Assembly: GCA_964187785.1 (NCBI GenBank)
Contig: OZ076414.1
Span: forward strand, 63,302,001 to 63,366,000
DNA from: Amphiscolops sp. MND2022
Taxonomy: Eukaryota
Direction of reading: 5' to 3'
Length of the DNA stretch: 64,000 nucleotides
The translations under genes and the position numbers were made by a program. The notes beneath the pieces are model-generated. The model saw nothing but the letters and a program-made list of their open reading frames with translations. It had not been told where the DNA came from and did not search any database. This document shows, piece after piece, positions 3,719 through 64,000 of the stretch (positions are counted from its first letter, which is position 1; the number at the start of each line of letters is the position of its first letter).

Positions 3719-3888
3719 TGAAAAGGTTGCGTGATTTTAAGGTCAATTGTGAATTGTTACAAGTAAAGCTATTCCAAACAACAGAACGTCAACTAAGTAA
3801 TTCTCAATATTGCGTATAACAAATGTAGTATCAACTGAATTGTACCTCGTTTATCAGAAGAATGGTCCCTGCACCTCAGTGTCCCTGC

Positions 3889-12169: not shown

Positions 12170-15100
12170 TTAGAGCCTGGGGCCACATTGATTTTCTGAT
12201 CTTGGGCCCCCGTCTGGGCCGAGGTCTGCTAGGATCTGTATTTCTGGGCCGTCGCTCAGGCCTTCGTTTTGAATTGCGGGATTTTCGGAGTTTATTTCTA
12301 CTGCATTATAGTATGCGAAATCTGGTTTCCAATTTGAAGCTGGGTTTCGTCGGAGATTGTAATGGGATTTTCGGGGGGATTTAGGAACGGGTGGACAATC
12401 TTCGGGTTCATCTTCGGTGTCTAGGTCTGGGTCATCTGTCTGGGTTTCCGGGTGGTTATTACTGCTTCCAGGTGCATGCTCTGGGTCGGGGTTCGAAGGG
12501 CTGGGGTATATTGGGTCAGTATCTGGTTCCTGAGCTTGGGGTATTACTTTGGGTTCGGGTGGTTGACTATTTGTGGGGTGGGTAGGGTGTTCTTGGTGAA
12601 GTTCCTGCCAAGCCATTGCGAAAAGGTCATCGTGCTGTATAGGCACTTCGGTGTCCTGCTGGAAATCTTGAGGCGCAACTGAGATGTCAGGCAGTTTGTG
12701 GCTGCTTGCGAATGGCCGTAGTCTGATTCTGTGCAGGATTTGGGTGAGGTTCGTTTGGAGTTTTCGGATTAAATAGTTATTATTGGGTAGGGTTTTGACC
12801 ACGATATATGGTCCCGTCCAAAGGTATTCCCGAAACGGCAGTTTTGTCGCTTGGCTATGCGCCTTTGGATGCAATGCATAGCAGTAGTCGTTTACTACCA
12901 GTGGGTTTGCTGATGCCTTTCTGTCATAATAGCGTTTATGACGGACATAGGCTTGCATCAGAGCTTGCTGGCTTTGGTTGAGGATCTGTTGTGTTTGTTG
13001 TAACACTTCCTCGGCTATCTCGTGGTTGATTGGGGTAGGGGGCTGCGGCTTGAGTCCATATTTCAGGTCGAGTACATTGTAGGGCACTCTTCCGTGAAAC
13101 ACTCTGCTGGGTTCGCATCCTAGTGATGTGTGGTATGAGGTATTGTAATTCAATACCGCCATCGGTAAGAATTGATGCCACATCGTGCGCCGTTCCCCTG
13201 TCATTATTTTGAGGCTTTCCTTCAGGGAGGCGTGAGTCCTCTCCAGGATGCCGATTGTCTGAGCGTGTTTCGTGGTGGCGTGTTTCAGTTGGATTCCCAG
13301 TGCAGCGGTGGTTTGTTGCATCGCTTCTGATATGAATTGGGATCCCTTGTCCGTTATGATTGTTGTGGGTAAATAGCAATGTCTGGTGATGATGTCCATT
13401 AGGACTCTGGTGACCGTTCTGGTGTCGATTCTAGCGACACTGTAGGCGAATAGGTACCTGGAGAAGACATCCATTGCTGTGATGACTGCGGTGTAACCTC
13501 CTGATGGGTCGTCGAAGGGGACTATGTCCATCTGGAGTGCGTCTTCGGGTCCCATTGCTATTTTTGACATGTCGATTAGTGGTGGTGTGATGGTGCTATT
13601 GGGTGTCCGCTTTGTTTGGGCGCATTCCATACACTGTGAGATATGGTTGGCTATCCGGGCGGCAAGTCCTGGGTAGTAGTATTTCTCGCGGCATTGTTGA
13701 ATGGTTTTGGCTATGCCCGGATGTCTTCCATATTTGCCATGATGGTGGTGTATGAATTCATTGACCAGTTGTTGGGGGAGCAGCACTTGTAAATATTTGA
13801 CCTTCCCCGTATCCCCAAAATATTGTCTATACAAGAGGCCGTCTTTGATGATGATCCTATCTTCTTGGGCTAGGTACTTCGCTGCTCTGGGGTCGTCATT
13901 GAGGAGTTGGGTGTCGTACGGCTCCTTCAATATTTTGAGCTTGAGATTTCTGAGGACAGGGTCCTGGTCCTGGTGTGGTCTGAGGCTGCGTGGAAAACTG
14001 TTTTCGTTGTACAGCTGGCGCCTTTGTTTCTGTTCCGGGTCTTGGATGCTGTTGCAGACCAGGGGTAGATTCTCCGTTTGGGGTTTTGGTTCAGTCGTAT
14101 CAGTTTGAGTATCAGTTGGTTGTTCTTGGGGGTTATAGATTTTCTTTCGGGCACTCTGTTTGCGTTCCCAGATGTCTTCCTCAGTTTCGGAATCGTCTTC
14201 TGGCAAGAAGTAAAATTGGTCCTCCTCATGTATATCTGAGGACTGGATGTTCACTTGGATGGGTGTTGTCTGGATATCTTCTCTGATTTGGAGAAGGACT
14301 TTTTCTTTGGGACTGATGTCCAATCGGGAGAGGAAGTCTGCCGCCGTGTTCATCCTTCCGGGCACATGGGCGATTTTGAAATGGAATTGAAGCACGAAAT
14401 CACAAGCGTTCCACAGGGAGGGTGGAATCATTTTGGTTTGAAAAAACCTTGTGACTGATTTATTGTCTGTTAGGACGATGGTTGGCTTAGAGGAACCCCA
14501 CAAGATGTGACTATACTCCATGAAGGCGAAATAGATGGCTAAAAACTCCTTGGCATAAATTGACAATTTCAATTGTGACGGAGAGAAAGTTTTAGATCCA
14601 AATGCCACAGGAGCATAGGTTTTCTTGGTGGAGGTGAGTTTCTGTTCTGGGTCCTCTTCGGTCATTAAGGCGTATCCTGCGTTCTTGAAATTGGCGTCAG
14701 TCATCAGGACATTTTGCCGGTTTGGCAGCGGCTGTTTGAGGTAGAGCCCGCACGCGTTGTCTAAGGACTTGTTGATGGCCTCAAAGTTTGCTATGAGCTC
14801 TTGGTCGATTTTGGCAGGCTTGTCAGATTTGATGAGTTCGTGGAAAGGTGCAATCTTCTCGGATAATCGAGGAATGTAATTTCTGTAATAGTTCACAAAT
14901 CCGATATATCGTTGAAGTCCTTTCTTCGTTCGGGGGAACTTGAGTGTTTGCAGATATTTCTGTATCTTGTGGCTCTGGGGTGCTACGCCTGATGGGGAGA
15001 TCGTCCGCCCAAGGAATTCGACTTCCTTGGCGCCGAACTGACATTTCGCCATTGTGAGCCGGAGTCCTGCAGCGCGGATGCATTGGAAGACCTCTCTCAA

Positions 15101-17752
15101 ATTGTTTTTCAACTCTTCAGGAGTGTTTGTGGCGATTCCAATGTCGTCCACGTATTGGGCGCATTTATCCGCCTTTATGGCTTTGTCCAGATACTCCCTC
15201 ATGAAGCTTGAGAAGGATGACAATGAGCGGCTCAGTCCCTGGGCTAGCCTGAGGTACGCGAACGTCCTGCTGGCGAAGTTGAAAGCTAGGAGTTGGACTG
15301 ACTTCTGGTCTGCCATCTGCAGTACGTGGTAAGCTTGTGAGCAATCAAGCTTACAAAACAACTTCTTGCCGGCGAGGTGTTGTGCCGCGTCCGTGAGGGT
15401 GCTGACCGGATGATTGTTATTGATGTACTCATCGGAAATCAGGTTCTTGATCTTTCTGAGATCTACTAGGAGCCGTAGGCGGCCGTTCGGTTTTCGTTGA
15501 GCGAAAATTGGGCTAGCGTACTTGCTGAACGGGAGGGTTGTTATAATCCCGAAATAATGCATTAATGCCAGTTCCACTGTCAAGTCCTCTTTCAAGTTAA
15601 TGGGGCAAGGCAGGCTTTGCGAGTAGACTGGGTCGTCTGTTTTTGGCGTGAGCTTGATTTTAAAGTCGTGGTTGATTCCGATGTCTAGTCGGTGCCTCGC
15701 GAAAATGTCATTGAACTCTATCAAGATTTCCTCAATGTCTTTTTGGTCATTTTCTGTTAATTGGGAATCATCCCATTTAAAGTTTTTGAGGAATGCCTCT
15801 CGGTCTTCAGCATTGTTATTGGGGTCCAGTTTCTGGATCTCTTCCAGTTCCTTGATTTCCCTCAGTATTCTGCTTTGAATCGGCGTGTGGGTACTAGGGT
15901 CGCCAGGATTGTCTGGTGTGGGGAACCAAAAGTTTTGACTCTGGGAAGGTTGGTCCGAAGTTTTCAGGAGTTCGTTGATGTATAGTATCGCATCTTCTGA
16001 GTCATCCTCCGTGAGTACTTTTAGTGCTGCGGTGTTGAGCGGTTTGAGCTCTTTGGCTTCTTCGGGCGACATAATTTTGAATTCAGCAACCGTCGTGTTC
16101 TTTTTTATTGTGTAGGGTGTGGGGGTAGTGTTGGTCACCCTTACCTCAATTTTCCTGTTGGAGGCTGTAGATATTGAGCTGGCTACTACTAGGGGGTCAC
16201 CGCTACAATGGTTGGTAGCTGGGTTGATGACACCGGTTGTGCCGATGGTAGACGTTATGTCTGTGTAGGCGGTGATTGTCTGGGTTGTTTCAGGAGGAAG
16301 GGTGATTGGATTCTTTACTTGTACCTTGTACATCTTTCGGTTGCGGGTGTACTCGTCGGTTTCAATTGAGTACGTTAGATGGGGGAAGTGGAGTAGGCCT
16401 TGGCTTACATCCAGAATGGCGCTGTTGTTTTTCAGGAATGTGAGACCAAGTATTGGGCCTGTTAGTCGTTTTGCAACGATGAACGTCTCTTTGAAATTCC
16501 AGTCCCCTATTTCAAATTGGAGGATTATTGTTTTGGTGGGGGCTTCAATGTCGCCGTTTGCGACTTGGAGTTTGAACGGGGGTGGTTCCATTTCTTTGAC
16601 TATGTCCTTGGGGGACATCTGAAGGATTTTGTTATAGTCGGTTTCGGAGATGCAGTTGACCAGCGCTCCAGAGTCAATGAGGGCGTCCAGGGTGAGGTCC
16701 TGGAAGTCCATTGGGGCGAATAGCATCTTCTTCTTTTTCTTAAGAGTCACCGCTGAGAAGATTGGGATGCATTCCTCTTTGGTGATTGGGTCTCTTGTGA
16801 GATATTCTGCAATCTGCGCCAGGGGGTAGGACTGGGGTTCGTCCTGGGTTGGTGTGTCGTTTACAGCACCTGAGGGTGATGCAGATTGCATGTTGGTTTC
16901 GTCAGTCGTAATGGGTCGAGGGTCCTCGACTTCATTTGCGGACTGACTTCTTGGGGAGGAGAGTGAGGACGACGCCTCGTTGTAGGAGAGAGGCTCTAGG
17001 AGTAGAGACCTTTTTATTCTCCTTGTTTGCGGTGTGGAGATTGTTATCTCCGTGTTGGTTGTGGTTTGGGTCAGGTCCACGGCTTCAGTCGTGGTCCTGC
17101 CGGTGAGATTTTCATGTTGGTGGCAGTCGGGTGCCACGTCCATTGTTGGGGATCGTATTCTTCCGGCTCTGATTAGGTTAACTGGTTGGTTTTTTGGTGG
17201 CGATTGTGGAGCCGTTGTTTGTGATCCGTGATCTTTGAGTATGGACTTGGGTTTGTTAGTCGACTCGTCGACTATTATTTCTGTCACTTGTTCCGCGTCC
17301 TGGTCGTATTCTGGGACTGGTTGGACGGTCTTCGGTCTGTGACGTGGTTCTGTCGAGATATTCATCCCAGTTTTCTTGATAAATTCCTCAAATGGCGTAC
17401 ACTCTTGTTGTTTAAAGGTTAGAGTCAATTGGTCGTAGATTTTGGGATTGTAGTAGGGGTCGCAGTTGTAGTCAGGGTCATGTATGTAGGTTTCAGGGGC
17501 AGTACTTTCGGGTAGTGGTCGTTTTGGGTTACTGTAGTCGGTTGGGTTGTCAAGGTACCATTGGGGGTAGTCCTTTTTAGTCATGTTTTGTCTATTTTGT
17601 TTGTTGAGCTTGTGAATCTGCCATCTTCGCTGCCAGTCGAGAGATGGTTCTTCATGTCGCTCGTCATTTTCTTCGTGGTCGTAGGTATTTGGGGGTTCTG
17701 ATGTTGTGAAATGTCGGGTTTCGACAATCTCCCCAAACTGAAGATGTGGCAA
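12170..17752 (-). CDS. pol: Element B Pol polyprotein (N-terminal extension, protease, RT, RNase H, integrase), 1860 aa open frame, expressed by -1 frameshift
   Basis: LIDSGA protease; QYVDDIGI RT; LMTDANF...ELLA-type RNase H region; HH...CMEC zinc finger; QMDIVP / ITDKG / ILERTH integrase DDE; WTGPYIV GPY/F motif. Confidence 0.96.
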   Translation of the reverse strand: MPHLQFGEIVETRHFTTSEPPNTYDHEENDERHEEPSLDWQRRWQIHKLNKQNRQNMTKKDYPQWYLDNPTDYSNPKRPLPESTAPETYIHDPDYNCDPYYNPKIYDQLTLTFKQQECTPFEEFIKKTGMNISTEPRHRPKTVQPVPEYDQDAEQVTEIIVDESTNKPKSILKDHGSQTTAPQSPPKNQPVNLIRAGRIRSPTMDVAPDCHQHENLTGRTTTEAVDLTQTTTNTEITISTPQTRRIKRSLLLEPLSYNEASSSLSSPRSQSANEVEDPRPITTDETNMQSASPSGAVNDTPTQDEPQSYPLAQIAEYLTRDPITKEECIPIFSAVTLKKKKKMLFAPMDFQDLTLDALIDSGALVNCISETDYNKILQMSPKDIVKEMEPPPFKLQVANGDIEAPTKTIILQFEIGDWNFKETFIVAKRLTGPILGLTFLKNNSAILDVSQGLLHFPHLTYSIETDEYTRNRKMYKVQVKNPITLPPETTQTITAYTDITSTIGTTGVINPATNHCSGDPLVVASSISTASNRKIEVRVTNTTPTPYTIKKNTTVAEFKIMSPEEAKELKPLNTAALKVLTEDDSEDAILYINELLKTSDQPSQSQNFWFPTPDNPGDPSTHTPIQSRILREIKELEEIQKLDPNNNAEDREAFLKNFKWDDSQLTENDQKDIEEILIEFNDIFARHRLDIGINHDFKIKLTPKTDDPVYSQSLPCPINLKEDLTVELALMHYFGIITTLPFSKYASPIFAQRKPNGRLRLLVDLRKIKNLISDEYINNNHPVSTLTDAAQHLAGKKLFCKLDCSQAYHVLQMADQKSVQLLAFNFASRTFAYLRLAQGLSRSLSSFSSFMREYLDKAIKADKCAQYVDDIGIATNTPEELKNNLREVFQCIRAAGLRLTMAKCQFGAKEVEFLGRTISPSGVAPQSHKIQKYLQTLKFPRTKKGLQRYIGFVNYYRNYIPRLSEKIAPFHELIKSDKPAKIDQELIANFEAINKSLDNACGLYLKQPLPNRQNVLMTDANFKNAGYALMTEEDPEQKLTSTKKTYAPVAFGSKTFSPSQLKLSIYAKEFLAIYFAFMEYSHILWGSSKPTIVLTDNKSVTRFFQTKMIPPSLWNACDFVLQFHFKIAHVPGRMNTAADFLSRLDISPKEKVLLQIREDIQTTPIQVNIQSSDIHEEDQFYFLPEDDSETEEDIWERKQSARKKIYNPQEQPTDTQTDTTEPKPQTENLPLVCNSIQDPEQKQRRQLYNENSFPRSLRPHQDQDPVLRNLKLKILKEPYDTQLLNDDPRAAKYLAQEDRIIIKDGLLYRQYFGDTGKVKYLQVLLPQQLVNEFIHHHHGKYGRHPGIAKTIQQCREKYYYPGLAARIANHISQCMECAQTKRTPNSTITPPLIDMSKIAMGPEDALQMDIVPFDDPSGGYTAVITAMDVFSRYLFAYSVARIDTRTVTRVLMDIITRHCYLPTTIITDKGSQFISEAMQQTTAALGIQLKHATTKHAQTIGILERTHASLKESLKIMTGERRTMWHQFLPMAVLNYNTSYHTSLGCEPSRVFHGRVPYNVLDLKYGLKPQPPTPINHEIAEEVLQQTQQILNQSQQALMQAYVRHKRYYDRKASANPLVVNDYCYALHPKAHSQATKLPFREYLWTGPYIVVKTLPNNNYLIRKLQTNLTQILHRIRLRPFASSHKLPDISVAPQDFQQDTEVPIQHDDLFAMAWQELHQEHPTHPTNSQPPEPKVIPQAQEPDTDPIYPSPSNPDPEHAPGSSNNHPETQTDDPDLDTEDEPEDCPPVPKSPRKSHYNLRRNPASNWKPDFAYYNAVEINSENPAIQNEGLSDGPEIQILADLGPDGGPRSENQCGPRL

Positions 17753-17754
17753 AG

Positions 17755-17764
17755 TTAGTTTTTT
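17755..17764 (-). other. -1 ribosomal frameshift slippery site A AAA AAC immediately before gag stop TAA
   Basis: Minus strand CAG TCA AAA AAC TAA; the -1 frame reads KKLTLPHLQ into pol. The same heptamer-stop is in element A (543-534, 1963-1954). Confidence 0.85.
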
Positions 17765-19317
17765 GACTGGGTTTGGTTTTGAGGTTGAGTTTGAGGTTGG
17801 GTAGTCACTTGCCTTGGAGGTATGAATCCCATGTGGTCAGTTGTCTGGTTGTGGTACTGGGTTTGGGTTTGGGGTTGGGTTGTCATTGAAAGGGGAGGTA
17901 GGTAGCCCATTTGGCTGGTTGTTTGATTTTGATATGGCGGTTGGGTCACTGGTAGATTGGTTTTGGCATACTGACCTTGTGACTGTGGTGGTAGCGGTAT
18001 GCTGTTTGAGGACGTAGCCTTGGGGGTTTTCCACCATTGTGGTCGATTTGCCCAGTTGGCGCCTGAGTAGCATTCTTCAGTTGTGTGGCTTTTCTTGCCA
18101 CAAGTTTCGCATGGGTTAACTATTTTGTTGGGCACTCTGTTACCCCGATTGCGAGCTTCGCGGGCTACTTTTCTGCAATTTTTGACAACATGGCCGGATT
18201 GCCCACATCCGTAGCATGGTCCTGATGGTTTGGGGGGATTCGGAGCTTGTTGTGGGTCTTGCACGTCAATTTGGTGCACTCCTGTTATGTTGCTCTCGTT
18301 TGGTGCCAACAGTTCGTTTAGCTCCATCTCTCTTTCTAGGTGTTCGACCATCATTTCGTACGATTCAGTTTCTAACCTTGCCTGGTTTAGCACTCGTTTT
18401 AGGTGGGTCGGCATTTTGGCGTAGAAGGAGGTCTCAATGAACTTGGGGGCGTCATCTCCGTATGCTTCTTGGGCCAGTTTTTGATACTGCTCCAAGAAAT
18501 CTTGGAAAGTTTGTTGGGATGGGTCAAAATAGAGCTGATTCCATTTGCAGCGGGCTGTTGCGATAGATTGGGGGCGGACATATCGTCGTCTGAAGGTTGC
18601 TATGATGTCCTCCAGGCTGGCACGGTTTGTGTCAGTCATGTTGCGGTAGGTCTGCAGGGCGTCATCCCTGAGTAAGGAATGGAAATAGTGTATTTTCTCT
18701 TCTTCGGATATGTTGGGATACACTTTGAGGCTAGTCATAAAAAGGTCTTCGAAGTGTTCAAACTTGTCGTTTTTACCTTTGAAAGTAGGCATTGTTGTTG
18801 ACATCGCTTTTGGCAGTCTAGGGAGCCCGATATTTTGTTGGGTTACATTCTGTAGCGATTCTAGTAGCTTTTCCACTATGTGGTCCGGGTATTTCTGGTT
18901 GGGGGGCGGTAGGCTTGATGATCGGGGCGGCACTTCTGCTTGAGGGAACACTCCTGTCACCATGTGTTGACCCTGCGATGGGTGCAACTCGTTCAGTATG
19001 GATGGCCTTGATGTTGAGGCTTGATTTTCGGTCTCGTCGGAATCTAAGGCGAGGTTTTCACAATTGGGTGGTTGGCCGGACAGTGAGTCTATTTTCGAGG
19101 ATAAGTTCTCGATCATTTTCAAAATCTCTCTCTGCCCAACTTCGGCATCTCTTATTCTTCTAGTCACTGACTTTTCAATTTTCTCAGATAACTCAGAGAA
19201 GTCTCGGTCGGAAATACTGGGAACGTTTTCAGTTCTCAAACTAGTTGCTTCTGACTCGCCTATCGAACTAGTCACTGAATCTCTCCTGGCCTTTCTTTTG
19301 GAGGATCTTTCAGGCAT
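17755..19317 (-). CDS. gag: Element B Gag, 520 aa, two CCHC knuckles; first 118 codons encoded inside the 5' LTR
   Basis: CYGCGQSGHVVKNC and CETCGKKSHTTEEC knuckles; the same N-terminus is duplicated in the 3' LTR (5035-5394). Confidence 0.93.
   Translation of the reverse strand: MPERSSKRKARRDSVTSSIGESEATSLRTENVPSISDRDFSELSEKIEKSVTRRIRDAEVGQREILKMIENLSSKIDSLSGQPPNCENLALDSDETENQASTSRPSILNELHPSQGQHMVTGVFPQAEVPPRSSSLPPPNQKYPDHIVEKLLESLQNVTQQNIGLPRLPKAMSTTMPTFKGKNDKFEHFEDLFMTSLKVYPNISEEEKIHYFHSLLRDDALQTYRNMTDTNRASLEDIIATFRRRYVRPQSIATARCKWNQLYFDPSQQTFQDFLEQYQKLAQEAYGDDAPKFIETSFYAKMPTHLKRVLNQARLETESYEMMVEHLEREMELNELLAPNESNITGVHQIDVQDPQQAPNPPKPSGPCYGCGQSGHVVKNCRKVAREARNRGNRVPNKIVNPCETCGKKSHTTEECYSGANWANRPQWWKTPKATSSNSIPLPPQSQGQYAKTNLPVTQPPYQNQTTSQMGYLPPLSMTTQPQTQTQYHNQTTDHMGFIPPRQVTTQPQTQPQNQTQSKN
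18949..18962 (-). other. Primer-binding site of element B (TGGTGACAGGAGTG), resembles tRNA-Leu-type PBS
   Basis: Directly abuts the LTR-terminal CA at 18963. tRNA identity is inferred from similarity to TGGTGTCAGGAGTG and was not verified. Confidence 0.85.
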
Positions 19318-21170
19318 TTTTCGGGTTTAAGGTTTATAAGCTTGAGGCTATCCAACGGGAATCTGAGGGAAAAGATTGAGATTTTTTTAATCTTCAATTG
19401 TATTTTCAAAGTGAAGAGTAAAGTTGTTTTACAACGAATGATTATCGAATTTCAAGATTCTAACAAAATTGTCAAATTATCAACTTGTTGAAATTATCAA
19501 GATTATTTTCTCACTGGAATTATTCAATCTTCCAAAGTATATATACTTTTCACCCACGTGAAGCGGGGAAAAATCCGCACCACTTTCACGCTTCGTTCAG
19601 CCCGGCGTCCCTCCAAGGCGGGGAAACAGGAAGTTCAGTTCCGCTTTGTCGAACTCAGACTCTCAGTTTGTTCATGCTTTCCGAGGAAAGCAAGCGTCCA
19701 CTTCCTGTCTGAGTTGCGACTCCGCTTCCCTTCGCCTCCAATCCCCGCCTTTTCAAGACGCCGAAACTGAACAAAGTGTGAAAAAATTAGTCACTGCGCA
19801 CGCCCAAAGAGCGAAATGATCGAACAAAGCAACAAATTGGAAATTGGGAAAATGAGAATTTCCCGAATTAATTTGGTTCAAATATTGCACGGCGAAATGA
19901 TTATTTAATAAGAAATACAAATTAGCTCATAAAGTTCACTCATGAGAGCTTAAAATCACAAATTCGAGTATAAATGGGAAAGTTCGGTCCCAGGCTAAAG
20001 TCTGGAACGGTTGAGGCAAAATGAAATGATTTCCTGAAAAATAATGATTAATTATATCAACAACAAACAATTCAGTGATTAGCATCAACTCGAAAATACG
20101 GTTCGAGTCTCTTCCCAATCTAGTTGAGTGGAAATTGACTCTAAACAAGGCAACACAACTCATTTATGGAGATTAAAACAAGCTAAATCGAACATTCAAT
20201 CCCAGGCCAAGGTCTGGGCCGAGGCTTGGCATTCTCAAATTAAATACTGCATTTACATGGTTAAAATCATCATACATTGCATGCAATCAATCAATACCGC
20301 TTACTGTTGTATGCGTTGCGTCACTGCTCTCTCGTGAGAGCGGAGAAATGGTTAGGGAGGGTCGATATTTCCAATTCCAGGATGGATTTGGTCAGAATAG
20401 ATTTCAGGCCGTGTCTCAGGCCGCGGTCTACTTCGTATAGCACTTGAACATGGTTTATCTGTAAAAATAGCATCATACTTCATTCTTTGTCTCCAGGCAT
20501 CATTTGAGATTGCAGGCATTGATTGGTAGGCTCATTAGGAGCAGAAAAAATCACTATTAACATTAACAATTTCCATTTCTACAATGGATTTTATAGATTT
20601 ACATTTCAGGCCATGTCCTGGGCCGCAGTATATCGGTATTTCAAAGTTAGCTCCAATACTTGTTTATATGGACAATTACATGTATAACGTTATTCTAATA
20701 CTCGTTTAACGCATCAACAGGTTTACATGTACTCACAAAATAGCATAATTGGTGTTAGAGATTGATTCGTAGCACTTTCATTCTCAGGCCACTCGCCAGG
20801 CCACCGCTTCACTGCGCAAATCTCAGGCCGGCTGCCAGGCCGCAGTTCCGCCATTATTCATTCAGGCCGCTTACTGAGCGGTGTGATTGTATTACTATTA
20901 ATTATATAGCACCGTATTAATACTATTAACTGCACAAGTAGCTTTATCCCGGTTAGTATACTGTATGTAAGTATATATAACTACATAAATATTAATATAT
21001 AATTTCTTCTAATTATTATATTATTTAGCGCCATTATTTCAGGTTGTATGGATTAAACTGATTGTTTTCTGGTTTTCTGTTTTCATTTCTCCTTTTCCAT
21101 TTCCTAATTTATTCTTCGAAGACTGGGTTGATTCTGCTGCAACACTCACAGCTCAAGTGGGGCTGTGACA
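18963..21170 (-). repeat. 5' LTR of element B (TATA box TATATATA at 19538-19545)
   Basis: Pair of 5040-7247; TATA context AAAAG-TATA matches the related LTR D. Confidence 0.95.
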
Positions 21171-53210: not shown

Positions 53211-54499
53211 TTTTTAAACCTGTATATAATTGCAGCTTTTTTGAAACTTGTTTTTACTGGCCGACTGGGATAGTGGCTGGTATGAGTAGTTGGTTGGTTG
53301 TTTCTAGTTGTTACTGGTCTATTGGGATAGTGGCTGGTATGGTTTCCTCCTTTCGATGCAGACCACTGGTGTGTGTCTTCTCCTCCAACATGATGACACA
53401 CATGGAACTTGATTAATGACGACCATCCATGATTTCTGATAGTGGAAAAAAAGCAAACAAATTCTGTCAAAAAAAAACGATTGTTAAAAAGCACTGCCAG
53501 CTGTGATTTTGGAGAAATTGTCACAATTTGTAACAATGTATCACAATTACGCGATGTGAAGTGCGTTGGTTAAAAATGTTTTTCTTATTCAGATTTTTGA
53601 TGCATGCGCTTTGCGCTGGTGATTTTTATGTACGAGTTTAATCAAGAAAAGAAATATAATTCTCAATTCACTTTCGATTTACTTTCTGAAGTAATTATGT
53701 GAGTTCGATCAGAATAATTATAAGTCTCAATTATAGTCTAATTTGTGAACTCTTAGTTCACTTCTCGTCTAATTTCTAATTCCAAATCTAAAAGTAGTCT
53801 CGTACTTAAAATTTTCGCGACTGTGCCTTCCTACACTTCAACAAAGGTAGTCTCAGGTGTGAGTTCGGATGGAAGGACTTTATTTCTACGACCCGTGAGA
53901 AAAGTGTATTTTGGACTATGAATATGTAAATTGAATCTTTCTTTATTTATATTAAAGTTGTAATAAATGTCACTCATACAAAAGCAAAGTGCACAAATAA
54001 GCATGAACAAAAAGAATATAATTAAATCAAACTTGAAATCTATCTTTAAATAATAAGAGATAAGTTGTTAGAAAAAGAATTAGTTATTAAGTCGTTTTAT
54101 GTTTTACCAGATCAAGAGGTGAAGCCTCTTTATAAGATGCAGCGATAGCTTGCAAGGTGTTTATAGTCCACTGATTGTCACGGACTGAAAAGAGAGCTAC
54201 TTGCTTCTCTTGATTAAAGGACAACAGATTGTTGTACTGGTTTTATAGAGTGCTATACGGCTACTCTTTGTCTCAAATTGAGAACAGTTCGACTTGAAGA
54301 GTCAAACAAAAACTAAGTTATTTAAGTCTCTTATAACCCAGCTGAAGCTATGGTTCTTGGTTTAGAGTCAGTATATCTACCAGACTTTAGTTTAGAGTCT
54401 ACTATAAAGCAGAGACTTTTCAATCTTTGTTAAACAAAGACGGTATGATAGCTTCTGTTCGAAGTCAAAAGTCAATTAGAACTCCAACGTAAGAGAAGA

Positions 54500-54985
54500 T
54501 TTGCTTTAACGATGAAAGCAGATTTTTGTTTTGTTTTAGATTGAAAATATTATAAGACTAAGACTTAGCTTGCCTTTACTTGAAGGCGGATTAGCAAATA
54601 GTTAAAGATTTAAATTGCTTCAATATTAAAGCAGAGTTAAAAAGCTTAAGACTTAACTTGTTTTGGCTCGGAAATATGCTAAGATAAAAATGCTTTACTT
54701 GAAAGCACGTTGGAAATAGTCTAAGACAAATTTGCTTTAACTAGAAAGCAGGCTTGACAAAAGTTTAAGTTAAAATTGCTTCACTCGAAGCAGAGTTGAA
54801 AATCGTCTAAGACAAATTTGCTTTAACTAGAAAGCAGGCTTGACAAAAGTTTAAGTTAAAATTGCTTCACTCGAAGCAGAGTTGAAAATCGTCTAAGACA
54901 AATTTGCTTTAACTAGAAAGCAGGCTTGACAAAAGTTTAAGATAGATTTGCTTTACTTGAAGCAGTGTTGAAAATAGTCTAAGAC
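54500..54985. repeat. Tandem repeat: ~43-bp subunits, two exact 86-bp dimers (54719-54890)
   Basis: GTCTAAGACAAATTTGCTTTAACTAG recurs at 54719, 54805, 54891. Confidence 0.9.
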
Positions 54986-55258
54986 AAGACTGAGCCAAAA
55001 CTTATAAAACTTTAAGAAGGTTGAAAACTTAGGCAAAAAGCACATAGACTAAAATGAGTTAAAGTTAAAGTTGAGAAAATATCTTAGAAAAATGAAAGCT
55101 CCAAAAAGAAAATTGAAATGGTTTAACTAACAAATGTTGCGCCGCGCTGAAGATGGGGATTGAACCCGTGAATGAAGATTGTAGAGTTGAAGATGAGTGA
55201 TTTATCAATTTAGTATTTTGCCAAAGGAAGAGCTCTAAGAGTTGAAAATTTGGTCTGC

Positions 55259-55431
55259 TTTTATACTAAATTTGACCGCTTCGTCAACCAGTAAAATTGA
55301 ATCACTGTTGTGATTGGTTGACGAGCATGACGTCATATGACGTCAAGTCATATGATCTGACATACGAGATCATTTTGTATGTGTATTTCGTGGGCGAAGC
55401 GTCCACGAGAAAATGATGTCATTTGACGTCA
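55259..55431 (-). promoter_or_regulatory. LTR core promoter: three CRE palindromes, CCAAT box, TATA box
   Basis: TGACGTCA at 55328, 55338 and 55424; CCAAT (minus) 55313-55317; TATAAAA (minus) 55259-55265. Confidence 0.7.
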
Positions 55432-55702
55432 TGACCAAATATGGAATGTAACCAGCGTCGCTGGACAAAGGGAGTGAACACGTTCGAGCGTGTTCAGAAT
55501 TCAGAGCTGAGTGAGAAAATAACAAAGATAAAACTGCGCAAGTCACAAAAGATAAAACTACATGTTACAAGTTTTGAGTTTATTTCTTTTTGAGTTATCG
55601 TAGTAAGTTTCTTTCTTTTTATTTGCCATAAGTCGCACACGACATCTCACCCGGGTTTCAAGATTGAAGAAATTGTAACAGGGGTACACAGGTTGTTGGC
55701 GT

Positions 55703-57148
55703 TCATGTTGATTCTTCTAGGTTAACTTCGATGAACATAGTGTCATTCAGGATGAATGGGGAGTTGCTTTTGAAGAGTTGGCTGTGTGGGATCAGGAAGG
55801 GGAAGCATATGCTCGGGTTCCCATAGCTTGTACAAGGTCGTATAAAACAAGCTGAATTTTGGTTGTCTTTTGGATCTACTATTTTAGTCCAGGTATCATT
55901 AGGCTCACTCAAATTGATTACATTAATTCGGAAGATTAATTTGAAAGGCCAGGAGAGAATTGGGTCGAACTCGCCAGGAAGGATGTTAATAACTAGTGAA
56001 GCACTCTCTCCAGTAGCAGGAGAGCATCCATAAGGGTAGAGTTTCATATCAAAGCGATACCCATGAGTTGATGTGTAGAATGGAGGGCTGTGAAAATTAC
56101 AAGGTATTTTTGGGTGCGGGTCGACGCCTTTTTGCCTTTCTAGTTCTGCAGCCTTTGCGTTATCAAACATAAGGCTGAAGGAGCTAATTCTCCAGATTAG
56201 CTTTTTGTCTCGTCCACAATCAATGCTGTGAATACGATCATAAAGATCCATTGTTAGACGTTTGAGGGGTTTCAGTTCAGCAAGTCGTCGGTGTATATCT
56301 GTTGATTCGGGCTCGGTTGAAGAAGGGATAGGAAGAGGAGTATTTACAGGTTGTTCAACAGTAGGTGTTATTATCTTCTTTTGAAGGTTTTCGACGACAA
56401 TTTGGAGTTGCTGAATGGTTCTGTCCTGTTGTCTTCGTAGGTTCTTTTCAAGCTCAAGTTGCTCGAAGAGGTTTGCAACTTGCAATTGTGTTGCGTGTAT
56501 GTATTGAGCATGTTTAAGATTGCTGAGTGGGAACTTGCTAATGAGCATCTTCATCTGGGCAAGGTCGCTGTCGGTGCATGTAGGTTGGCTGAGATTTGTT
56601 ATTTGATTTTGTAGTGTTGTAATTTCATTTTCCATGGCGGCTAATCTAAGGTTGAGCTCATCTAATAATTGTTCTTCATTTTGTTTTCAAATGAAAGCAG
56701 AGATAGCCCGAAGGGGTACTGATAGCCTCTGGTTTTTAAGAACGGTGTTTTCAATAGTAAATTCTTGTCTTTTTGAGTCCCAGAAAATAATTCTCCACTG
56801 ATTGACTTCTTTTTTGAGAGTATAGTTGAGGTTATAATGAAATCTGGGGTTTCTGGTTATCGAGTATTTTTGAGCAGCTTTTTCGCTTCTTTTTTGCTTT
56901 TCTAAAGCTTGTTTCAATGAGTATTGTGTTTTCTTCTTTTTAATACTACCGTTAAAGACAAATGTATTAGAGCTATTCGGAGGGGTAACAGTGGCGTCTA
57001 AAATTGTTTGATTGAGTGGTAGTTGAGGAATAGGAGATTCACATGAAGTGAGGTCAAACATTGGAAAATCGAGTATGTCCTTCTCTGTTAGAGTGTCTTT
57101 TGAAAGATGAAGTTCCAGATCTGACGAAAGAGAGGTGTGGTCGGTCAT
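55703..57148 (-). CDS. TRAF-like protein (N-terminal region + coiled coil + MATH/TRAF-C domain), ~481 aa, one in-frame TGA at 56687-56689
   Basis: KLIWRISSFS, HSPPFYTSTHGYRFDMKLYPYG, GEFDPILSWPF, SACFIRP, NDTMFIEV match the TRAF MATH consensus. ORFs 57148-56687 and 56635-55703 share a frame with 17 open codons between; intronless. Confidence 0.85.
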
Positions 57149-57174
57149 TTCTTGCTAAAAATAGAATACAAAAG

Positions 57175-59310
57175 TTAAATTGGTGATATTGTATCTAATC
57201 GATTAGATGCTGGCAGACAATTTATGACGGGGTAGATGTGTTCAGAAGCATCTTGATTGTCGGTACTGAATGTTGTCATGGGAATATCTTTTGTAGTAGG
57301 ATTGAACATTGAATGGGAGATTGAAACCATAAAAAGATTATAACTTGCTGATAGTAGAATTTTACCAAATCCAACAGATGCTCCAGTAAGTCGGTGTATT
57401 TCAAAGGCTCTGACAATAGTTACTGTCACATCAATAATTAGTTTTATAAAAAGGAAAACTGCAAACCAAATACCACATTTTTCTAGCCAATATCCAATTG
57501 TGCCAAATGTTTGTCTAAATTTGCTTTCGAAGTAACCAGGAGATATCATGTTATCAACAAAGAAATCCATTTTGGGTGCGTAGTATGTATATCCTTCAGG
57601 TCCTTTCTTTGATTGTGAAGGAACAATGAGCTTTCTTGTGAATTTCTGCAAAGCATTCTTTGATGCAGAACTCATGAGTATGTTGTCCCAAAATTCAGTT
57701 AGCTGGCCTTTCGTGTACATTCCAGCGTTGATTGATTGAGGGAACTGGTCCCTTGTGAATGGTGCTACATCTTTTGGCGAAAAGATAGCAGGTCTATCTC
57801 TATGTGTGATCTGTGGTGTTAGTGAGAACCAAGAGTTCTTATCGTCCATGTCCATTTGAAAAAGGTTCTTTATGTGATCCGAACAGTTCTGAGGCATTGC
57901 ATCAGGTAAAGTTTGCCTTGTGATGGGATCTACAAATTTGATTTGTCCTTTGTAGAAGATAGGTATTTTATCGTAGCACTCGTTCATCGTATGAAGAGGT
58001 GATTTGACTAGGGGACAAGAGTAAAGCCATGCAAGGCTTCCATCAGTTTCTAAGAACATTGATCTGTTTCCAGTCAACATATATCCAGCTAGTCTTGAGT
58101 TCTCAAGTGAAAGCATCAGAATAGTGAGTATGTGCGATCGTTCTTGTTCACACTGATTTTTCAAAAGATGAAGTTCTGAGGCTTTGAGTGCTCTGGAGCT
58201 CTCAAAGAAAAGGTAGTCCAGTTTAGTTCCCTGTTGTAATTCGTAGTCCATGTTCAACCATGTTCCATAGTATGGGTCTGATTGATAGTTACTAGCAACC
58301 CAGAGTTTACTATGGCCTGGGTCATCTCTTTCTTGATCATAAGGGGAATAGTGCATCTTGTGAACTCTGTCCTCTTGTTGAATCATATTTCGTCCAGTTT
58401 TCATGTCAAATCCACCATAAAGGATAGCAACAAACAAAGATTCATAGGTTGTAGGATATACATCTGATGGTTTATTACAAAGTTTTTGTGGTCTGTTTTT
58501 GATTTCAAAGAGATATTTGTTTTCTGAATCGTTCTTACTAACAATATAGTATTGATCGTCATTTTTGATCATATTTACGTACTCCTCTTTCAGTACGGTG
58601 AGAATACAATTGTCTGGATTATCCCATACATAAGCATATGGGTCAAGAGAAGTGCTGTCACATCCCAGTTCGTCTAGCTTGCAGGGTAGAGGTTGTCCAT
58701 TTTTATTCATTATAGTCCCGTCTCTGAGTTTGACGTTCAGAGTAATATCTTGGATGTGAGTTTCAAAAGTGTCTTTTTCAATCCATTCAAAACCATCGCA
58801 TTCATTTTTGAATGTGTCGTCTGCATCGCCATTCCATCTAAGATGTTGTTCAATTATCCCTTTCTTCATTGTAATTTGATGATTTAGTAGAGTTATTGGT
58901 GATCCTTCAGCTACAAGTCTGCATTGTGCAGGCGATAAATCGAGATAGGAGGTAATCGTCTTTTGTTTGATATCGATGCTGGAATGGTCATGCATTCCAC
59001 AATAGAATCTGTTTCTTTAATGTTTGACGCTGCATATGGTAGCGTTAATTTCTGTTCGAAAATGTTTTGTGTACATCTTGACTTTGGCATGGCTCATGTC
59101 TATGTTCTCAGGAGCCACGTTACAAGGTTTGACTTGGTTGAGAGAGTAGAGATTGTTTTCTGACATTTCACTGCAATCGTAATGTGAGACTGTGACTGTA
59201 GGTGCGATATCATCCAGTATGGGCTGCTTCTTGTTGGGGTAGATGAGATTTATTGAAAGCATCAAAATGAAAATAACAAAATATTTACAGTATATCTTTT
59301 CACTATCCAT
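57175..59310 (-). CDS. env: Envelope glycoprotein, chuvirus-G-like (class III fusogen type), ~711 aa, one in-frame TAA at 59017-59019
   Basis: N-terminal hydrophobic signal, HYDC...YSLNQVKPC, FYCGMHDHSS, many Cys, C-terminal TM (CGIWFAVFLFIKLIIDVTVTIV). The two track ORFs are in frame with 7 codons between. Confidence 0.8.
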
Positions 59311-59583
59311 TATCTACTAATGAAAACGGTACTCCGAAAATACTATAAAGGGTTTAGGAATAGAAAGGTAGACTTGCTAACCTTGAGATGAAGAGAGTAT
59401 TTTGCTTTCGATGAAGCAGTGAGAAGGGCGGTTTTGCTTTCAATAGAGCAGCGAGAAATCTGTAGCACTTGGCAATACAGGTGATTTGTTCAAATTGAAC
59501 TGAAAAGAGAGCAAGAATGAATTCTGCTGAAAATTGACAATTTAGTCAAAGACAAGTGGATGATAGTCCTTTTCGTTGTAAAT

Positions 59584-60312
59584 ACACGTCTAAATACCGT
59601 GTCTTCCCGCTTAAGAAAAGTGTTCTGTTTGAAACAGACAAAAGTGAGTAGTAGCGAGGAGTTATTTATAGACGGCAGAGTTTGACACTTAGGTCTTTAC
59701 CGTCTCTTCTTGCAAGGTAATGTAGCACACGTCTAAAAACCGTGTCTTCCTGCTAAAGAAAAAGGATCTCTTTGAGACCAAGAAGAAAGGAAAATAAGAG
59801 CAGGGAGTTATTTATAGACGGCAGAGTTTGATACTGAGATCTTTACCGTCTCTTCTTGCCTGAGAAAGAGAGAGTTTAAAAAAAAGTTAAATAAAGGCAA
59901 GGTTACACGTCCAAAACCCGTGTCTTCCTACCAAAAGAAAAAAGTGATCTGATTTGCCAGTTCAGAACAATGAAAATAATAAAGGTAGGGAGTTATTTAT
60001 ACACGGCAGAGTTTAATGCAAACCGTCGTTTGATCTTTACCGTGTCTTTGTCAAAGTTTGTGACAAAAATTATAATATACGTCTATACACCGTATCTTCG
60101 TTGAGCTATGCAACGGAGTTATTTATACACGGCAGAGATTGATGCTGAGATCGTTACCGTGTCTTCTTGCAAGGATAAAATTGAATACGCACGTCCAAAA
60201 CCCGTGCCTTCCTGCTGATAAGAACTGATCTGATTTAGATCAAAAAAGAAAAAGAGCAGGGAGTTATTTATACACGGCAGAGTTTGATACTGAGATCTTT
60301 ACCGTGTCTTGC
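59584..60312. ncRNA. Array of five structured repeat units (three hairpins + fixed TTATTTAT linker) of unknown function
   Basis: Units start at 59584, 59727, 59905, 60077 and 60189; compensatory substitutions in all three stems (see findings). Confidence 0.7.
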
Positions 60313-60405
60313 ACCTAAAAAGAAGAAGTTGAATGAAAGGTTTAATTAATCACAGTACACAGTATTAAAATGAAAAGATAAAATGAAAAGATGAACGGAT
60401 GTAGA

Positions 60406-60804
60406 TTAGTTCGGCAGGCTGAGGATTTCTTCTACCTTTGACTTGTAAAACTCTTCAAAGGAGCCAAGTCCAGATTCCATAAAACAAGATAGTTCGTCCA
60501 AAAGGGGTAGGTCGAAGGTTTGTATTTCTGATGCTGAATTGTCTAAGTGGAGTGAGATGGCAATGGCTAGTTCGGCAAAGAATTTAGTTTCTTCTTCTAC
60601 TTTAATAAAGACTTTCGTCAGAGGATCTAATAGTTTATGTCCTTTTACTGTTAGCCAGAATTGGTGTTGGTACGACCACTGTAGTTGTTTTACTATTAAT
60701 ACTTCAGGACTTTCGATGGGGTCGACTAGATTATAAATTGATACAGGTAGATAAAGTGAAATTGTTTCAATTTCGTCTTCTTCTCAGAGATTGTGGATGA
60801 ACAT
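60406..60804 (-). pseudogene. Small ORF paralog 3 (132 codons, in-frame TGA at codon 7)
   Basis: MFIHNL*EEDEIETISLYLPVSI...LIVKQLQWS...LLDELS aligns with the 117- and 106-aa ORFs. Confidence 0.65.
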
Positions 60805-60933
60805 TTGGTGGTTTATTGTCGTTTTCGGGTTGAATTTTGAGGAGGTTGATTTCTAGGTGGTTGTGGGAGAATGCGTCTGATCCAAGTTTGTCTAATGATT
60901 TCCTCGCGTAGACTGAAACTCATTCGATTTTCT

Positions 60934-61254
60934 TTATGCTGCTGTTGTGTCGGCTAGCTCTCCAAGGATATGGAGTTGAAATTGGGTGATGTGTGATTCT
61001 GGTTCTTCAGCGTAATTATCCAAAGCCTCAGATAGTTGTTCTCGGAGAAATCTATTACTAGCGATTTCTAAAGTGGAGACTTTGCTTTTATTATTTACAG
61101 GGTGTATTGTTATCAAAATGAAACTGGGTTTAGTAAAGGACCACTTGAGTCTGATGATATTGAAGTTTTCAGTGACGCCTGCTGGAGTAGTTATTTTAAA
61201 CGGACAGTTGAAATTGACTTCTTCAATACATTCGTTATTAAGGTGAAAGTTCAT
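60934..61254 (-). CDS. Small ORF paralog 2, 106 aa, unknown function
   Basis: Clear similarity to 61257-61610 (FNCP.KITTP.G..ENF.I..L.WS; LHVLGEL/LHILGEL). Confidence 0.75.
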   Translation of the reverse strand: MNFHLNNECIEEVNFNCPFKITTPAGVTENFNIIRLKWSFTKPSFILITIHPVNNKSKVSTLEIASNRFLREQLSEALDNYAEEPESHITQFQLHILGELADTTAA

Positions 61255-61256
61255 AT

Positions 61257-61610
61257 CTAGTTGCTTTTGTCAATGTTTTCTGGATACATCAATGGGGTTA
61301 TTGTATCAGTTAGTTCCCCAAGAACGTGGAGGTGATACTGTTCAACGTGTTGTTCAGGATTCCGAAGGTAATCGTTTAGTGCTTTAGAAAGTTGGATTTC
61401 AAGAAAACTATTTTCTGCTACTTCAAAGGTAGTTACTTTATTTTTGTTGCTAATGGGGTGTAGTTTCACGGAGATGAAACAAGGTGATATTTGTGACCAC
61501 CTAAGTTTGGTAATTATAAAGTTTTCGGAGTTGCCTGAAGGGGTTGTTATCTTCCAAGGGCAGTTGAATTCTACTTCATCAATTTCGCCTTCATCAAAAA
61601 TTATGTCCAT
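61257..61610 (-). CDS. Small ORF paralog 1, 117 aa, unknown function
   Basis: ATG directly after the upstream TAA; paralogous to the two downstream ORFs. Confidence 0.75.
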   Translation of the reverse strand: MDIIFDEGEIDEVEFNCPWKITTPSGNSENFIITKLRWSQISPCFISVKLHPISNKNKVTTFEVAENSFLEIQLSKALNDYLRNPEQHVEQYHLHVLGELTDTITPLMYPENIDKSN

Positions 61611-61826
61611 TTAAATACTATTGTCAGCATTCAGGAATGCATCCGTTGGTGCGTTTCCAAAGAATAGAAAGATGTGATGAAAATAGTCCCAGTATATAGA
61701 CGTTGGAGGGACAGTAATAATTTTCTTCTGTTTTGTTTGGTGGTGTTGAAGGGAAACGTGGAAAGTCAAATTTCGGAAATCTTGTCTAACTATTCTGTAG
61801 AAATCGTTGTTTATCTTGATGTACAT
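61611..61826 (-). CDS. Small ORF, 71 aa, first of the cluster
   Basis: ATG 41 nt after a strong 3' splice site (61867-61868); stop abuts the next ATG. Confidence 0.55.
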   Translation of the reverse strand: MYIKINNDFYRIVRQDFRNLTFHVSLQHHQTKQKKIITVPPTSIYWDYFHHIFLFFGNAPTDAFLNADNSI

Positions 61827-62826
61827 TTGCTAGATTCGTCAGCTGATTGTGTAGTTGTAGGCTGTGCTAAAATACAAACAAAACCACGCGCTTCGACTTA
61901 CTCTGTAAAATTCATTTTAGAATCTTACAAAAGCGATCGCTAAAGAACTAGTTCAAAATTTACTTTTTGCTCAAAACAAAGGAGCTAGAGGTCAGAAAAA
62001 GATTTGTGATATTAATTGGAGAATACGGCGCTTCATGACTAAAGATGAGATTATTACAAAATGAAAGCGAAGTAATAAATTACTGTTGATTACAACAAAG
62101 GAGTTTTGCGGCAAGTCATTTTCATTGTTCTATTAAGGAGGAGCTGAAATGTTTGGCGGCTGAAATGAAAGCTAGTTATGGAGCTGAAAAGACAATAAAC
62201 AAAGACGTGAACAAAGACATTAAATTGCTTTTTAAGTGAGAGTAAAGATAAGTTGAACAAAGCAATTATTTGATGAAGTTGAGTTATTTGGTGGCTGAAA
62301 ACAAAAGATTGTTATCAACAAAAGTGAAGCGTGAACAAAAGTTAAATTGAAGAAAGAAGTTGACAATATAACAAAAGTTTGAACAAAGCATAACTTTACC
62401 ACTTCAAGATAAAGTAAGTTGGTTTTTTTTTCAAATAAAGATTACAGTAGTTATTCATTTACTAATATAGTTTTATAAAGCATTAAGATGTAACAGATGG
62501 ATAAAGAATTTTGTTGGGGGTCTTCCTTTGTTTTTGTAGTTTCTTCTTTGTTTTCTTCATTTTGTCTGCTGATTTTCTGGGCTGTTCAGTTGGGTGTTTT
62601 TCGGGTGTTATTTTCTTGCGTTACGTTTTACTTTTTCTAGTTTTGATTTCTTCTAACTACGAAGTAGTCCCACCGCCGTGGAACGAAAAGTAGAAATTCT
62701 GTGGTTTTTCGGTGGTTTCGCGCCGAGCAGTTTTGGTTGGGGTAGCCGGGAAATTTTTTGAGGTAGGGGGGTGCTGAAAGTGAATTTTCAATCTGTGTAT
62801 TTTCAGAACGCTTTGATTAAAATAAA

Positions 62827-63336
62827 ATGGGCAGTTTGAATGATTTGTTGTTACCCGTTGTCGATGCAACTGAGGACGTGTGGGCTTCTATGTTTTGCCC
62901 ACAGGAGTTAGCGTCACTGAAATCTCTTGTCAGTGATTTGCATCAGCCGATGCTAAACATGGGCGCTGTATTTCCTCTGGACGTGGAGGAACGGTTGTCC
63001 GTTACCTTGCAGTTCCTGGTTGGTGCGGTTGACGTAAGTTCTTTCTTATTTTATCAGTTGTAGTTGTATTAGTTTCTTGTCGTAGTTTTGATGTCTTGTT
63101 TGAGTAGATAGAGAATGTTGATTTGGTCGTGCAATTTTTTGTTGTTTCAGTGGTTTCCTGTGCTGGCCGGCAGTGCAACAACTAGTAAGATTGTGTTTCG
63201 AGAGTTGGAGCATATTCAACAAACGTATTCAAAGCTAACTCGGTTGGCTAAACGTGAGGTGGTGGTAAGGTGGGAAATGCTCGATCATAAGCCAGTGATT
63301 GAGTTCTTGCGCCGGCCATTGTTTATAAACGAATAG
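62827..63336 (+). CDS. Antisense two-exon gene inside element F, 130 aa, unknown function
   Basis: Exon 62827-63033, intron 63034-63150 (GTAAGT...TTGTTTCAG, 117 nt, phase 0), exon 63151-63336 in frame. Confidence 0.7.
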
Positions 63337-63424
63337 AACTTGGTTATTGTAAATATTTTGTATATTCTTTTTTATAATCGGGTCTTTTGTATTTTGGTTT
63401 TTGGTAAGCTGAGCAATACAGTAT

Positions 63425-64000
63425 TTAATCTTTATATCCCTTTCTTTCCAAGTTTCGTAGTGAGCTATCGGGATGAGAGCGCTTGTATTTTGCTTTTACT
63501 TTCGATGTAAGATCAGCAACTTTATTTTTCTTTTTTGGCGATGAAGACGTAGATTGTTCAGCTTCATGAAATTGCGGCGTTGTCCTCAAAATAGTAGGAG
63601 CACGAATAGGCATAGGAGTCATAGGCAGTATAGGAGTTTGTAGCGGCGGCAATGGTGAAATCGTTAAATTTTGATAGTTGTGATCATCATTGGTAGGCGT
63701 AGAAGGAGATTGAATTCCTGAATCAGCATTAGGCGAACGTGCAGCGTGATTTTTGCTCATTTCTTGAATATTGGTGTTTTCTTGTAGCGGCGATATGATA
63801 AAAGGCATTACATCTAGGGAACATCTTTGTTGATTTGAATTGTAGTCATTTATCTGTGACTGCACTAAGTGTTTGTAGAAATCACTATCTTTTGTTATAG
63901 GCGGCGCGTAGTTAGTGATTAAAGGAGGGAGTCTTTCCTCTTTAGGAAAGTATTCAATCAGGTGATTCCGATGAGTAACTTTGATATTATCCGGGTTAGC
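63425..64000 (-). CDS. pol: C-terminus of element F Pol (integrase tail), partial
   Basis: Frame open from the window edge: VTHRNHLIEYFP (typical end of the GPY/F region), then a Pro/Ser-rich tail ending SLRNLERKGYKD. Confidence 0.7.
   Translation of the reverse strand, partial: ANPDNIKVTHRNHLIEYFPKEERLPPLITNYAPPITKDSDFYKHLVQSQINDYNSNQQRCSLDVMPFIISPLQENTNIQEMSKNHAARSPNADSGIQSPSTPTNDDHNYQNLTISPLPPLQTPILPMTPMPIRAPTILRTTPQFHEAEQSTSSSPKKKNKVADLTSKVKAKYKRSHPDSSLRNLERKGYKD

Follow-up and report, generated by a model that had tools for sequence, protein, structure and literature searches.

What is an intronless gene of the TRAF type doing between the envelope gene and the long terminal repeat (LTR) of a retroelement, where did it come from, and what protein does it specify? 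These questions are raised by a 64,000-nucleotide stretch of DNA from Amphiscolops sp. MND2022 (contig OZ076414.1, positions 63,302,001 to 63,366,000; hereafter the window), in which a first-pass annotation had marked such a gene at 55703-57148. The features of the locus as we now read them are collected in Table 1.

Table 1. Features of the TRAF-bearing element in window coordinates.
Feature	Position	Strand	Basis or remark
3' LTR, 2090 bp, TG...CA	53555..55644	-	self-BLAST against 5' LTR and flanks
Three TGACGTCA palindromes, CRE/ATF-type	55328..55431	.	in LTR, upstream of CCAAT box and TATA box (55265)
TRAF-like gene, coiled coil and MATH, without RING or finger	55703..56679	-	own ATG at 56679
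ORF153, separate accessory gene, 153 aa	56687..57148	-	sister-copy comparison
env, Monjiviricetes (chuvirus/gB-type) fusion glycoprotein	57175..59310	-	PF24664
Five dispersed repeats, each with TATAAATA box	59584..60310	-	element sense strand, just upstream of env
Three small accessory ORFs	60406..61610	-	117, 106 and 132 aa in sister copies
pol 3' end	63425..64000	-	gag and remaining pol past window end
5' LTR partner	70039-72128 (window-equivalent, beyond window)		self-BLAST

The TRAF-like gene and its product

The minus strand of 55703-57148 contains two stop-to-stop frames of 155 and 327 aa with a single TGA between them. The downstream frame encodes a TRAF-type MATH domain (Pfam PF21355, E=1e-22; 80.6 bits against a cut-off of 27.4), and the PDB and Foldseek matches listed for the protein are to TRAF1-6 only. 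All 38 intact copies carry just 1-2 Cys residues in the first 150 aa and hence neither a RING nor a zinc finger. Canonical RING-TRAFs (TRAF2-6) possess an N-terminal array of RING and fingers, and none was recognized in the element protein, while the control P0125 does give RING matches. The first-pass description of an intronless minus-strand ORF that ends at 55703, combines a coiled coil with a TRAF-type MATH domain, lacks RING and zinc fingers, and sits between env and the 3' LTR is therefore borne out.

Its account of the reading frame required revision. The TGA (56687-56689) had been taken as an interruption within one gene, leaving either a 310-aa C-terminal ORF or a restored 481-aa protein as the product, whereas comparison of copies identifies it as the normal stop of ORF153. 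The TRAF ATG follows this stop by 7 nt (2 nt in one subfamily) and, wherever the relation is measurable, never in the same frame. A DNA search returned at least 40 matches at 96-100% identity among 200 candidates, and a MATH profile search scored at least 150 loci among 440 candidates; from 80 fetched loci, once repeats, identical copies and other families had been set aside, 47 sequence-distinct loci made up what we call family A. The TRAF ORF begins at an M-K/E-K-Q ATG in 41 of these, and the usual product, deduced from the 38 copies with an intact frame, is a protein of 323-330 aa. The frame is broken in the other nine, the window copy among them. Specifically, the window copy is 1 base shorter near 56670-56680 than each of 29 sister copies (29/29), its TRAF frame is shifted within the first codons, and the longest ATG-initiated ORF left in frame, which starts at 56635, could at best yield a 310-aa form. 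This private indel alone joins the ORF153 and TRAF frames, so the 481-aa frame is an artefact of the window copy. A read-through or single protein of that length was ruled out, as in the sister copies the ORFs lie in different frames, at either gap of 7 or 2 nt. Copy L011 shows a 482-aa fusion frame through a 2-nt insertion of its own.

The TRAF stop lies 58 nt from the LTR, not 23 nt as first proposed. The edge at 55644 is fixed by self-alignment with the 5' LTR, by which an edge at 55680 was likewise rejected. Within the fetched flanks, an LTR lies downstream of the gene in 47/47 family-A loci and env upstream in 46/47.

The surrounding element

The gene is carried by a Ty3/gypsy-type LTR element of 18.6 kb that spans the window and the neighbouring genome stretch (window-equivalent 53555-72128). 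Its genes run in the order gag, pol, ORF117, ORF106, ORF132, env, ORF153 and, last, the TRAF-like ORF. Classification as an env-bearing Ty3/gypsy element follows from the paired TG...CA LTRs, the 4-bp target duplication in the flanks, the primer site (TGG) after the 5' LTR, the presence of gag and env, and the order of protease, reverse transcriptase (RT), RNase H and integrase in pol. Each of the six extended copies has a pair of LTRs (in one case partly truncated), and two of the six are without gag-pol. These two (G000:C7:11,255,376-11,267,826 and C2:89,555,024-89,565,008) retain env, ORF153 and the TRAF gene, and the one on C7 has a 4-bp target duplication.

The two LTRs of the window copy are 99.7% identical by self-BLAST (6 mismatches in 2090 bp). 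Internally, gag and pol are broken into several frames, with segments corresponding to protease, a macro-like domain, RT, RNase H and integrase. The macro-like segment, between protease and RT in the pol of another copy (L033:6936-8852), is a weak match to PF01661 that falls below the cut-off (E=0.07). Env, 711 aa in several copies, is split here by a stop at 59017-59019, and the third small ORF has lost its start; over 53555-64000 the breaks thus touch pol, env, the third small ORF and the TRAF start. Several internal breaks between near-identical LTRs suggest that a defective template was mobilized in trans. The window also holds other, unrelated gypsy-type gag-pol elements at 12170-19326 and 1-3736, and two long plus-strand ORFs at 9335-11849.

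ORF153 is under purifying selection and is 39-42% identical between family A and its sister family; it had no match in Pfam or Atlas. Just before its ATG, at 57149-57173, is a pyrimidine-rich tract that ends in TAG and resembles a splice acceptor. The env tail retains E-H-I-Y-P-x-I in both family A and the sister family, B.

With respect to control sequences, the three TGACGTCA sites of the LTR were reached by 0 of 300 shuffles. Family-A LTRs carry three such sites in 29/41 copies, two in 11/41 and one in 1/41, and the site was seen in 0/2 family-B LTRs examined. CRE sites are a common feature of LTRs. The TATAAATA repeats upstream of env are possibly an internal promoter; they had no match in family B.

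A likely host donor gene and probable capture through RNA

A single-copy gene of the host (G000:C3:90,866,458-90,869,747) is the likely donor; it encodes 493 aa in four exons, separated by three GT-AG introns of 805, 595 and 407 bp. It is 45% identical to the element protein over element residues 120-323 and 38% over 2-156, as compared with only 26-32% for three canonical TRAFs. The shared region is interrupted in the donor by two introns, after codons 268 and 426, and the absence of both from the element points to capture from a spliced mRNA. The start of the element ORF corresponds to donor residue 57, directly after the sole zinc finger of the donor.

The donor itself begins 19 residues before this finger and has no RING; no RING motif belonging to it turned up in the ~68 kb upstream. 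An orthologue of 474 aa, found on a transcript-derived 2.4-kb Logan contig (P0187), has the same MPVK start and the same junctions. A RefSeq model from the acoel Symsagittifera roscoffensis (XP_063710988.1) is also RING-less, and no RING was detected in the orthologues P0187 and P0192 with a search that gives RING matches for the control P0125. The acoel relative makes it probable that the host, too, is an acoel. Loss of a RING at capture was therefore ruled out: the capture removed only one zinc finger, and the lack of a RING, inherited from the donor, is no adaptation of the element. Accordingly, the proposal that a host TRAF was stripped of its RING on capture and so became a dominant negative finds no support, since the donor and its full-length relatives already lacked one. 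The host genome does have a RING-bearing TRAF (C10:42,094,36x). Another host MATH gene, L055 (G000:C2:79,076,141-79,078,100), is of the canonical LNG type; no RING was found near it.

The phylogeny against host TRAFs that the first-pass annotation had suggested was run on 48 MATH sequences, among them 17 TRAFs of canonical type and no named TRAF1, L055 having been dropped by the trimming rule. The element, the donor and their relatives fall together on one side of a branch with 100/99 support, opposite the 17 canonical-type TRAFs. Order within the element/donor side is a polytomy, so the donor is assigned from sequence identity, coil motifs held in common and the loss of introns, not from a sister relationship. 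Intronless relatives are P0060, P0061, P0064, P0079, P0083 and P0093, of which P0061, P0064 and P0093 gave no match in G000 at strict thresholds. P0067 was dropped as evidence for a host transcript or start site because its contig carries a virus-like gene cluster; scans of viral contigs with P0001 and P0067 gave no match.

Overall, the comparisons confirm capture: the element gene is an intronless copy of an intron-bearing host gene, enclosed by LTRs. The earlier suggestion that a host TRAF-type adaptor had been retro-captured thus gains support from enclosure, from the absence of two donor introns and from dN/dS values far below 1.

Purifying selection

Selection was estimated by the Nei-Gojobori method between family-A subfamilies (five pairs). 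The whole TRAF ORF gives dN/dS of 0.11-0.14 (Fisher p<1e-20), with 0.03-0.08 for the MATH domain, 0.14-0.27 for the first coil and 0.24-1.05 for the linker. Variants common to several copies have a dN/dS of 0.18 and singletons 0.67, which fits selection during replication and decay after insertion. Judged from these substitution patterns, the TRAF-like gene is a real accessory gene under strong purifying selection.

Predicted structure and peptide groove

An AF2 model of the protein (mean pLDDT 84) has three coil helices, a disordered linker and a MATH sandwich, with coil helices at 51-104 and 122-155. The 29 PDB fold matches listed are all to TRAF1-6, and the best viral fold matches are iridovirus TRAFs. 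Three chains of residues 120-325 are predicted to form a homotrimer, with a score of 0.74 against 0.17 for the best control, contact agreement between runs of at least 84% and partner pLDDT of at least 82. The mark for this score is reached by 21/30 solved homo-pairs and 0/23 single chains, with the alignment left unused; as TRAF trimers have already been solved, the score may reflect likeness to those structures and does not show binding. Among the attributes of a TRAF domain, the C-terminal TRAF-type MATH is present, while the coil leading into MATH and the trimer are seen by prediction only.

In terms of ligand recognition, the K-x-Y and S-A-C residues and a strand Gly, which we take to be positions of the peptide groove, have fared differently. 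K-x-Y is kept in 37/38 and S-A-C in 36/38 family-A copies. The otherwise conserved Gly of the binding strand is Cys in 38/38 family-A copies and Thr in family B, so that binding to the usual host partners may be altered or lost. The strand reads PSICF in 38/38 family-A copies and has diverged from the donor.

A sister family and other carriers

Family B, a sister LTR family, has the same gene order in 4/4 extended copies (for example G000:C7:40,078,818-40,098,056; L089-L091), and its LTRs are 99.95% identical in 3/4. Identity to family A is 62-72% for pol, 60% for env, 51% for gag, 39% for ORF153 and 28% for TRAF. Its TRAF ORF occupies the same slot but is 250 aa long, the first coil segment having been lost. 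The gene is thus present in sister elements, as the first-pass annotation had wished to see checked, and there too it is constrained, with dN/dS of 0.04-0.05 at dS ~1.5 (three pairs) and the frame still open. A single clade for the TRAFs of A and B is compatible with the data (p-AU 0.32) without being demonstrated, the tree being a polytomy at this point. The missing first coil of B and the 28% identity indicate that the two proteins may act differently.

The same TRAF lineage also occurs in a foldback DNA element of 14-18 kb, which carries at its centre a finger-less gene that has retained introns (for example G000:C1:78,423,860-78,441,002; L147-L149). The gene is central between long inverted arms in 5/5 copies, with 6-bp target duplications in 3/3; the arms reach 7.8 kb and have AGTAGT ends, and dN/dS for the gene is 0.36-0.82. 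Genes of this type were found at 19 further loci (L103-L121), some on small contigs and possibly duplicates. AGTAGT ends are a mark of Polintons. The Polinton/Maverick group is described as having terminal inverted repeats, a 5-8-bp target duplication, pPolB and integrase (10.1101/2023.08.22.554363); the portion of that source consulted did not give AGTAGT ends as a mark. The inverted arms and 6-bp duplications of the foldback element fit this group; no pPolB or integrase ORF was recognized inside the element (family E), and the searches made gave no identity for ORFs in its arms.

A third carrier is a 39-kb metagenome contig with a dense cluster of intronless genes (L193:10001-16557) that includes a one-finger TRAF of the donor's clade (P0067). 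Its neighbours are a BIR+RING IAP, two more MATH genes, an HSP70, a VRK-like kinase and an EEP nuclease. On this gene content the contig is likely a large DNA virus; no viral hallmark gene was recognized within the 17.8 kb examined.

Relation to known systems

The closest precedents are the planarian Burro/GYPSM1 elements, giant gypsy-like LTR retrotransposons with a MATH_TRAF_C domain (PMC6431247). From their description, these resemble the present element in being gypsy-type, in having an env akin to the fusion proteins of mononegaviruses and in carrying MATH_TRAF_C, which in one species is a separate accessory ORF (PMC6431247). A role against apoptosis or ubiquitination was proposed there without a test (PMC6431247). 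In Burro, however, MATH lies in or upstream of a gag-env-pol polyprotein of ~5,000 aa with BIR, BCL2 and ankyrin motifs (PMC6431247), whereas the present gene stands alone 3' of env, has a full TRAF coil and an identified intron-bearing donor, and has had its selection measured.

Vertebrate TRAF1 resembles the donor in having no RING, one zinc finger, a coiled coil with TRAF-C, and a trimeric state (PMC6305416). The donor differs in having YPYG/YPFG in place of LNG and an insertion after the first MATH strand, within a lineage met here among acoels; in the element copy the zinc finger is gone as well. As the donor belongs to a separate lineage, the likeness to TRAF1 is best regarded as architectural convergence and is not shown to be orthology. 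The megalocytivirus TRAF, ISKNV ORF111L, is likewise a virus-borne, host-derived TRAF domain that acts on death signalling, but it keeps its RING, comes from a large DNA virus that infects fish, and favours apoptosis (PMC3352826).

Env-carrying Ty3/gypsy elements with an HSV-gB-type env, termed 'ancient errantiviruses', are widespread (PMC13524379). They share with the present element the gag-pol-env order, the RT-RNase H-integrase arrangement, multicopy recent insertions and a primer binding site after the 5' LTR (PMC13524379); the present element differs in its five extra ORFs, the TRAF-like gene included. Acoels, TRAF and MATH are unmentioned in the main text of that survey (PMC13524379), and within the main texts searched we found no account of the element or of repeated TRAF capture. 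MATH_TRAF_C in an env-bearing gypsy element (Burro) and a viral TRAF (ISKNV) are thus already known; the donor and the convergent captures are new.

Possible functions

With respect to function, we favour, as about an even call, the idea that the element's TRAF product is a decoy without ligase activity, which would weaken death and immune signalling in the cells that produce the element. The viral-style immunomodulator proposed by the first-pass annotation is, in this sense, plausible. Spliced donor mRNA would have recombined into the element during reverse transcription, and the protein would now be translated either from a subgenomic RNA or through re-initiation past ORF153. It would occupy receptor or adaptor tails or mix into host TRAF trimers and, bringing no ubiquitin-ligase activity, would let the cell survive while element particles keep being made. 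This reading is preferred because of the IAP and BCL2 company that TRAFs keep in other mobile elements: the same lineage adjoins a BIR+RING IAP on the virus-like contig, and Burro pairs MATH with BIR and BCL2-like motifs. Enclosure, the donor, selection, the predicted trimer and the availability of a host RING-TRAF to interfere with also speak for it. Nonetheless, the nearest model in architecture, TRAF1, enhances pro-survival and NF-kB signalling as well (PMC6305416). A search with PF00020 for TNF-receptor genes gave no match, but the control search was equally blank. It is less probable, if still worth weighing, that the protein is a positive adaptor, one that would recruit host RING-TRAF or IAP ligases and raise stress-kinase or survival signalling, and that could drive its own LTR via the CRE/ATF sites. 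The first coil, shared with the donor and under selection, is consistent with such a role, as are the three TGACGTCA sites upstream of TATA in the family-A LTR, which shuffling did not reproduce. Those sites are, however, missing from both family-B LTRs examined and are of a kind common in LTRs, and no Pfam match was reported for a cIAP-binding coil. Among known proteins, the TRAF1:TRAF2 heterotrimer recruits cIAP better than TRAF2 alone (PMC6305416), and an iridovirus TRAF activates caspase 8 instead of blocking it (PMC3352826), both of which favour an adaptor.

A role in the particle cycle appears improbable. Here the protein would be a trimeric scaffold in trafficking or assembly that binds Gag, ORF153 or the tail of env, and any effect on host signalling would be incidental. 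The TRAF gene always follows env and ORF153, the two extended copies without gag-pol retain these three genes, and the binding strand is invariant in family A although diverged from the donor. The env tail could furnish a ligand, as its E-H-I-Y-P-x-I resembles ExxAr, which we take to be part of the TRAF6 motif; the tail is more simply read as what is presumably a YxxI sorting signal, and the Pro that we assume for the TRAF6 consensus is missing. Moreover, genes of the same lineage sit in the foldback element and on the virus-like contig, where no env was seen, and the main text of a broad survey of env-bearing gypsy elements describes no such gene (PMC13524379). Most improbable of all is a neutral passenger, whether a fragment of host mRNA captured once or an independent retrocopy beside the element, a notion that the dN/dS and enclosure results already refute. 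The nine broken copies would suit it, but the gene lies inside paired LTRs with target duplications, dN/dS between subfamilies is 0.03-0.14, and at dS as high as ~1.5 the frame has stayed open. Lack of enclosure in other copies and neutral evolution, either of which the first-pass annotation regarded as fatal to capture, are contradicted by the flanking LTR and env genes of family A and by its whole-ORF dN/dS.

Implications

Complex retroviruses and large DNA viruses typically carry accessory genes directed at host signalling; to our knowledge, such genes have rarely been documented, together with donor and selection data, in LTR retroelements of invertebrates. In the present case a single genome displays the donor, the boundary of the capture, the loss of introns and purifying selection over a long term. 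The findings support the idea, put forward as a proposal for Burro, that retrotransposons with an env gene manipulate pathways of death and immunity. Tentatively, and with somewhat less than even confidence, we propose that one acoel TRAF1-like lineage is an anti-parasite signalling hub and that mobile DNA of at least three unrelated kinds has captured it independently: env-bearing LTR retroelements via RNA, a foldback DNA element via genomic DNA with an intron kept, and a large DNA virus, where it lies beside an IAP. The LTR elements would then be complex, infectious, retrovirus-like agents of invertebrates, and the captured TRAF an accessory protein directed against host death and immune signalling. 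Repeated capture by unrelated mobile elements marks this lineage as one through which immunity is likely controlled in a bilaterian group that branched off early.
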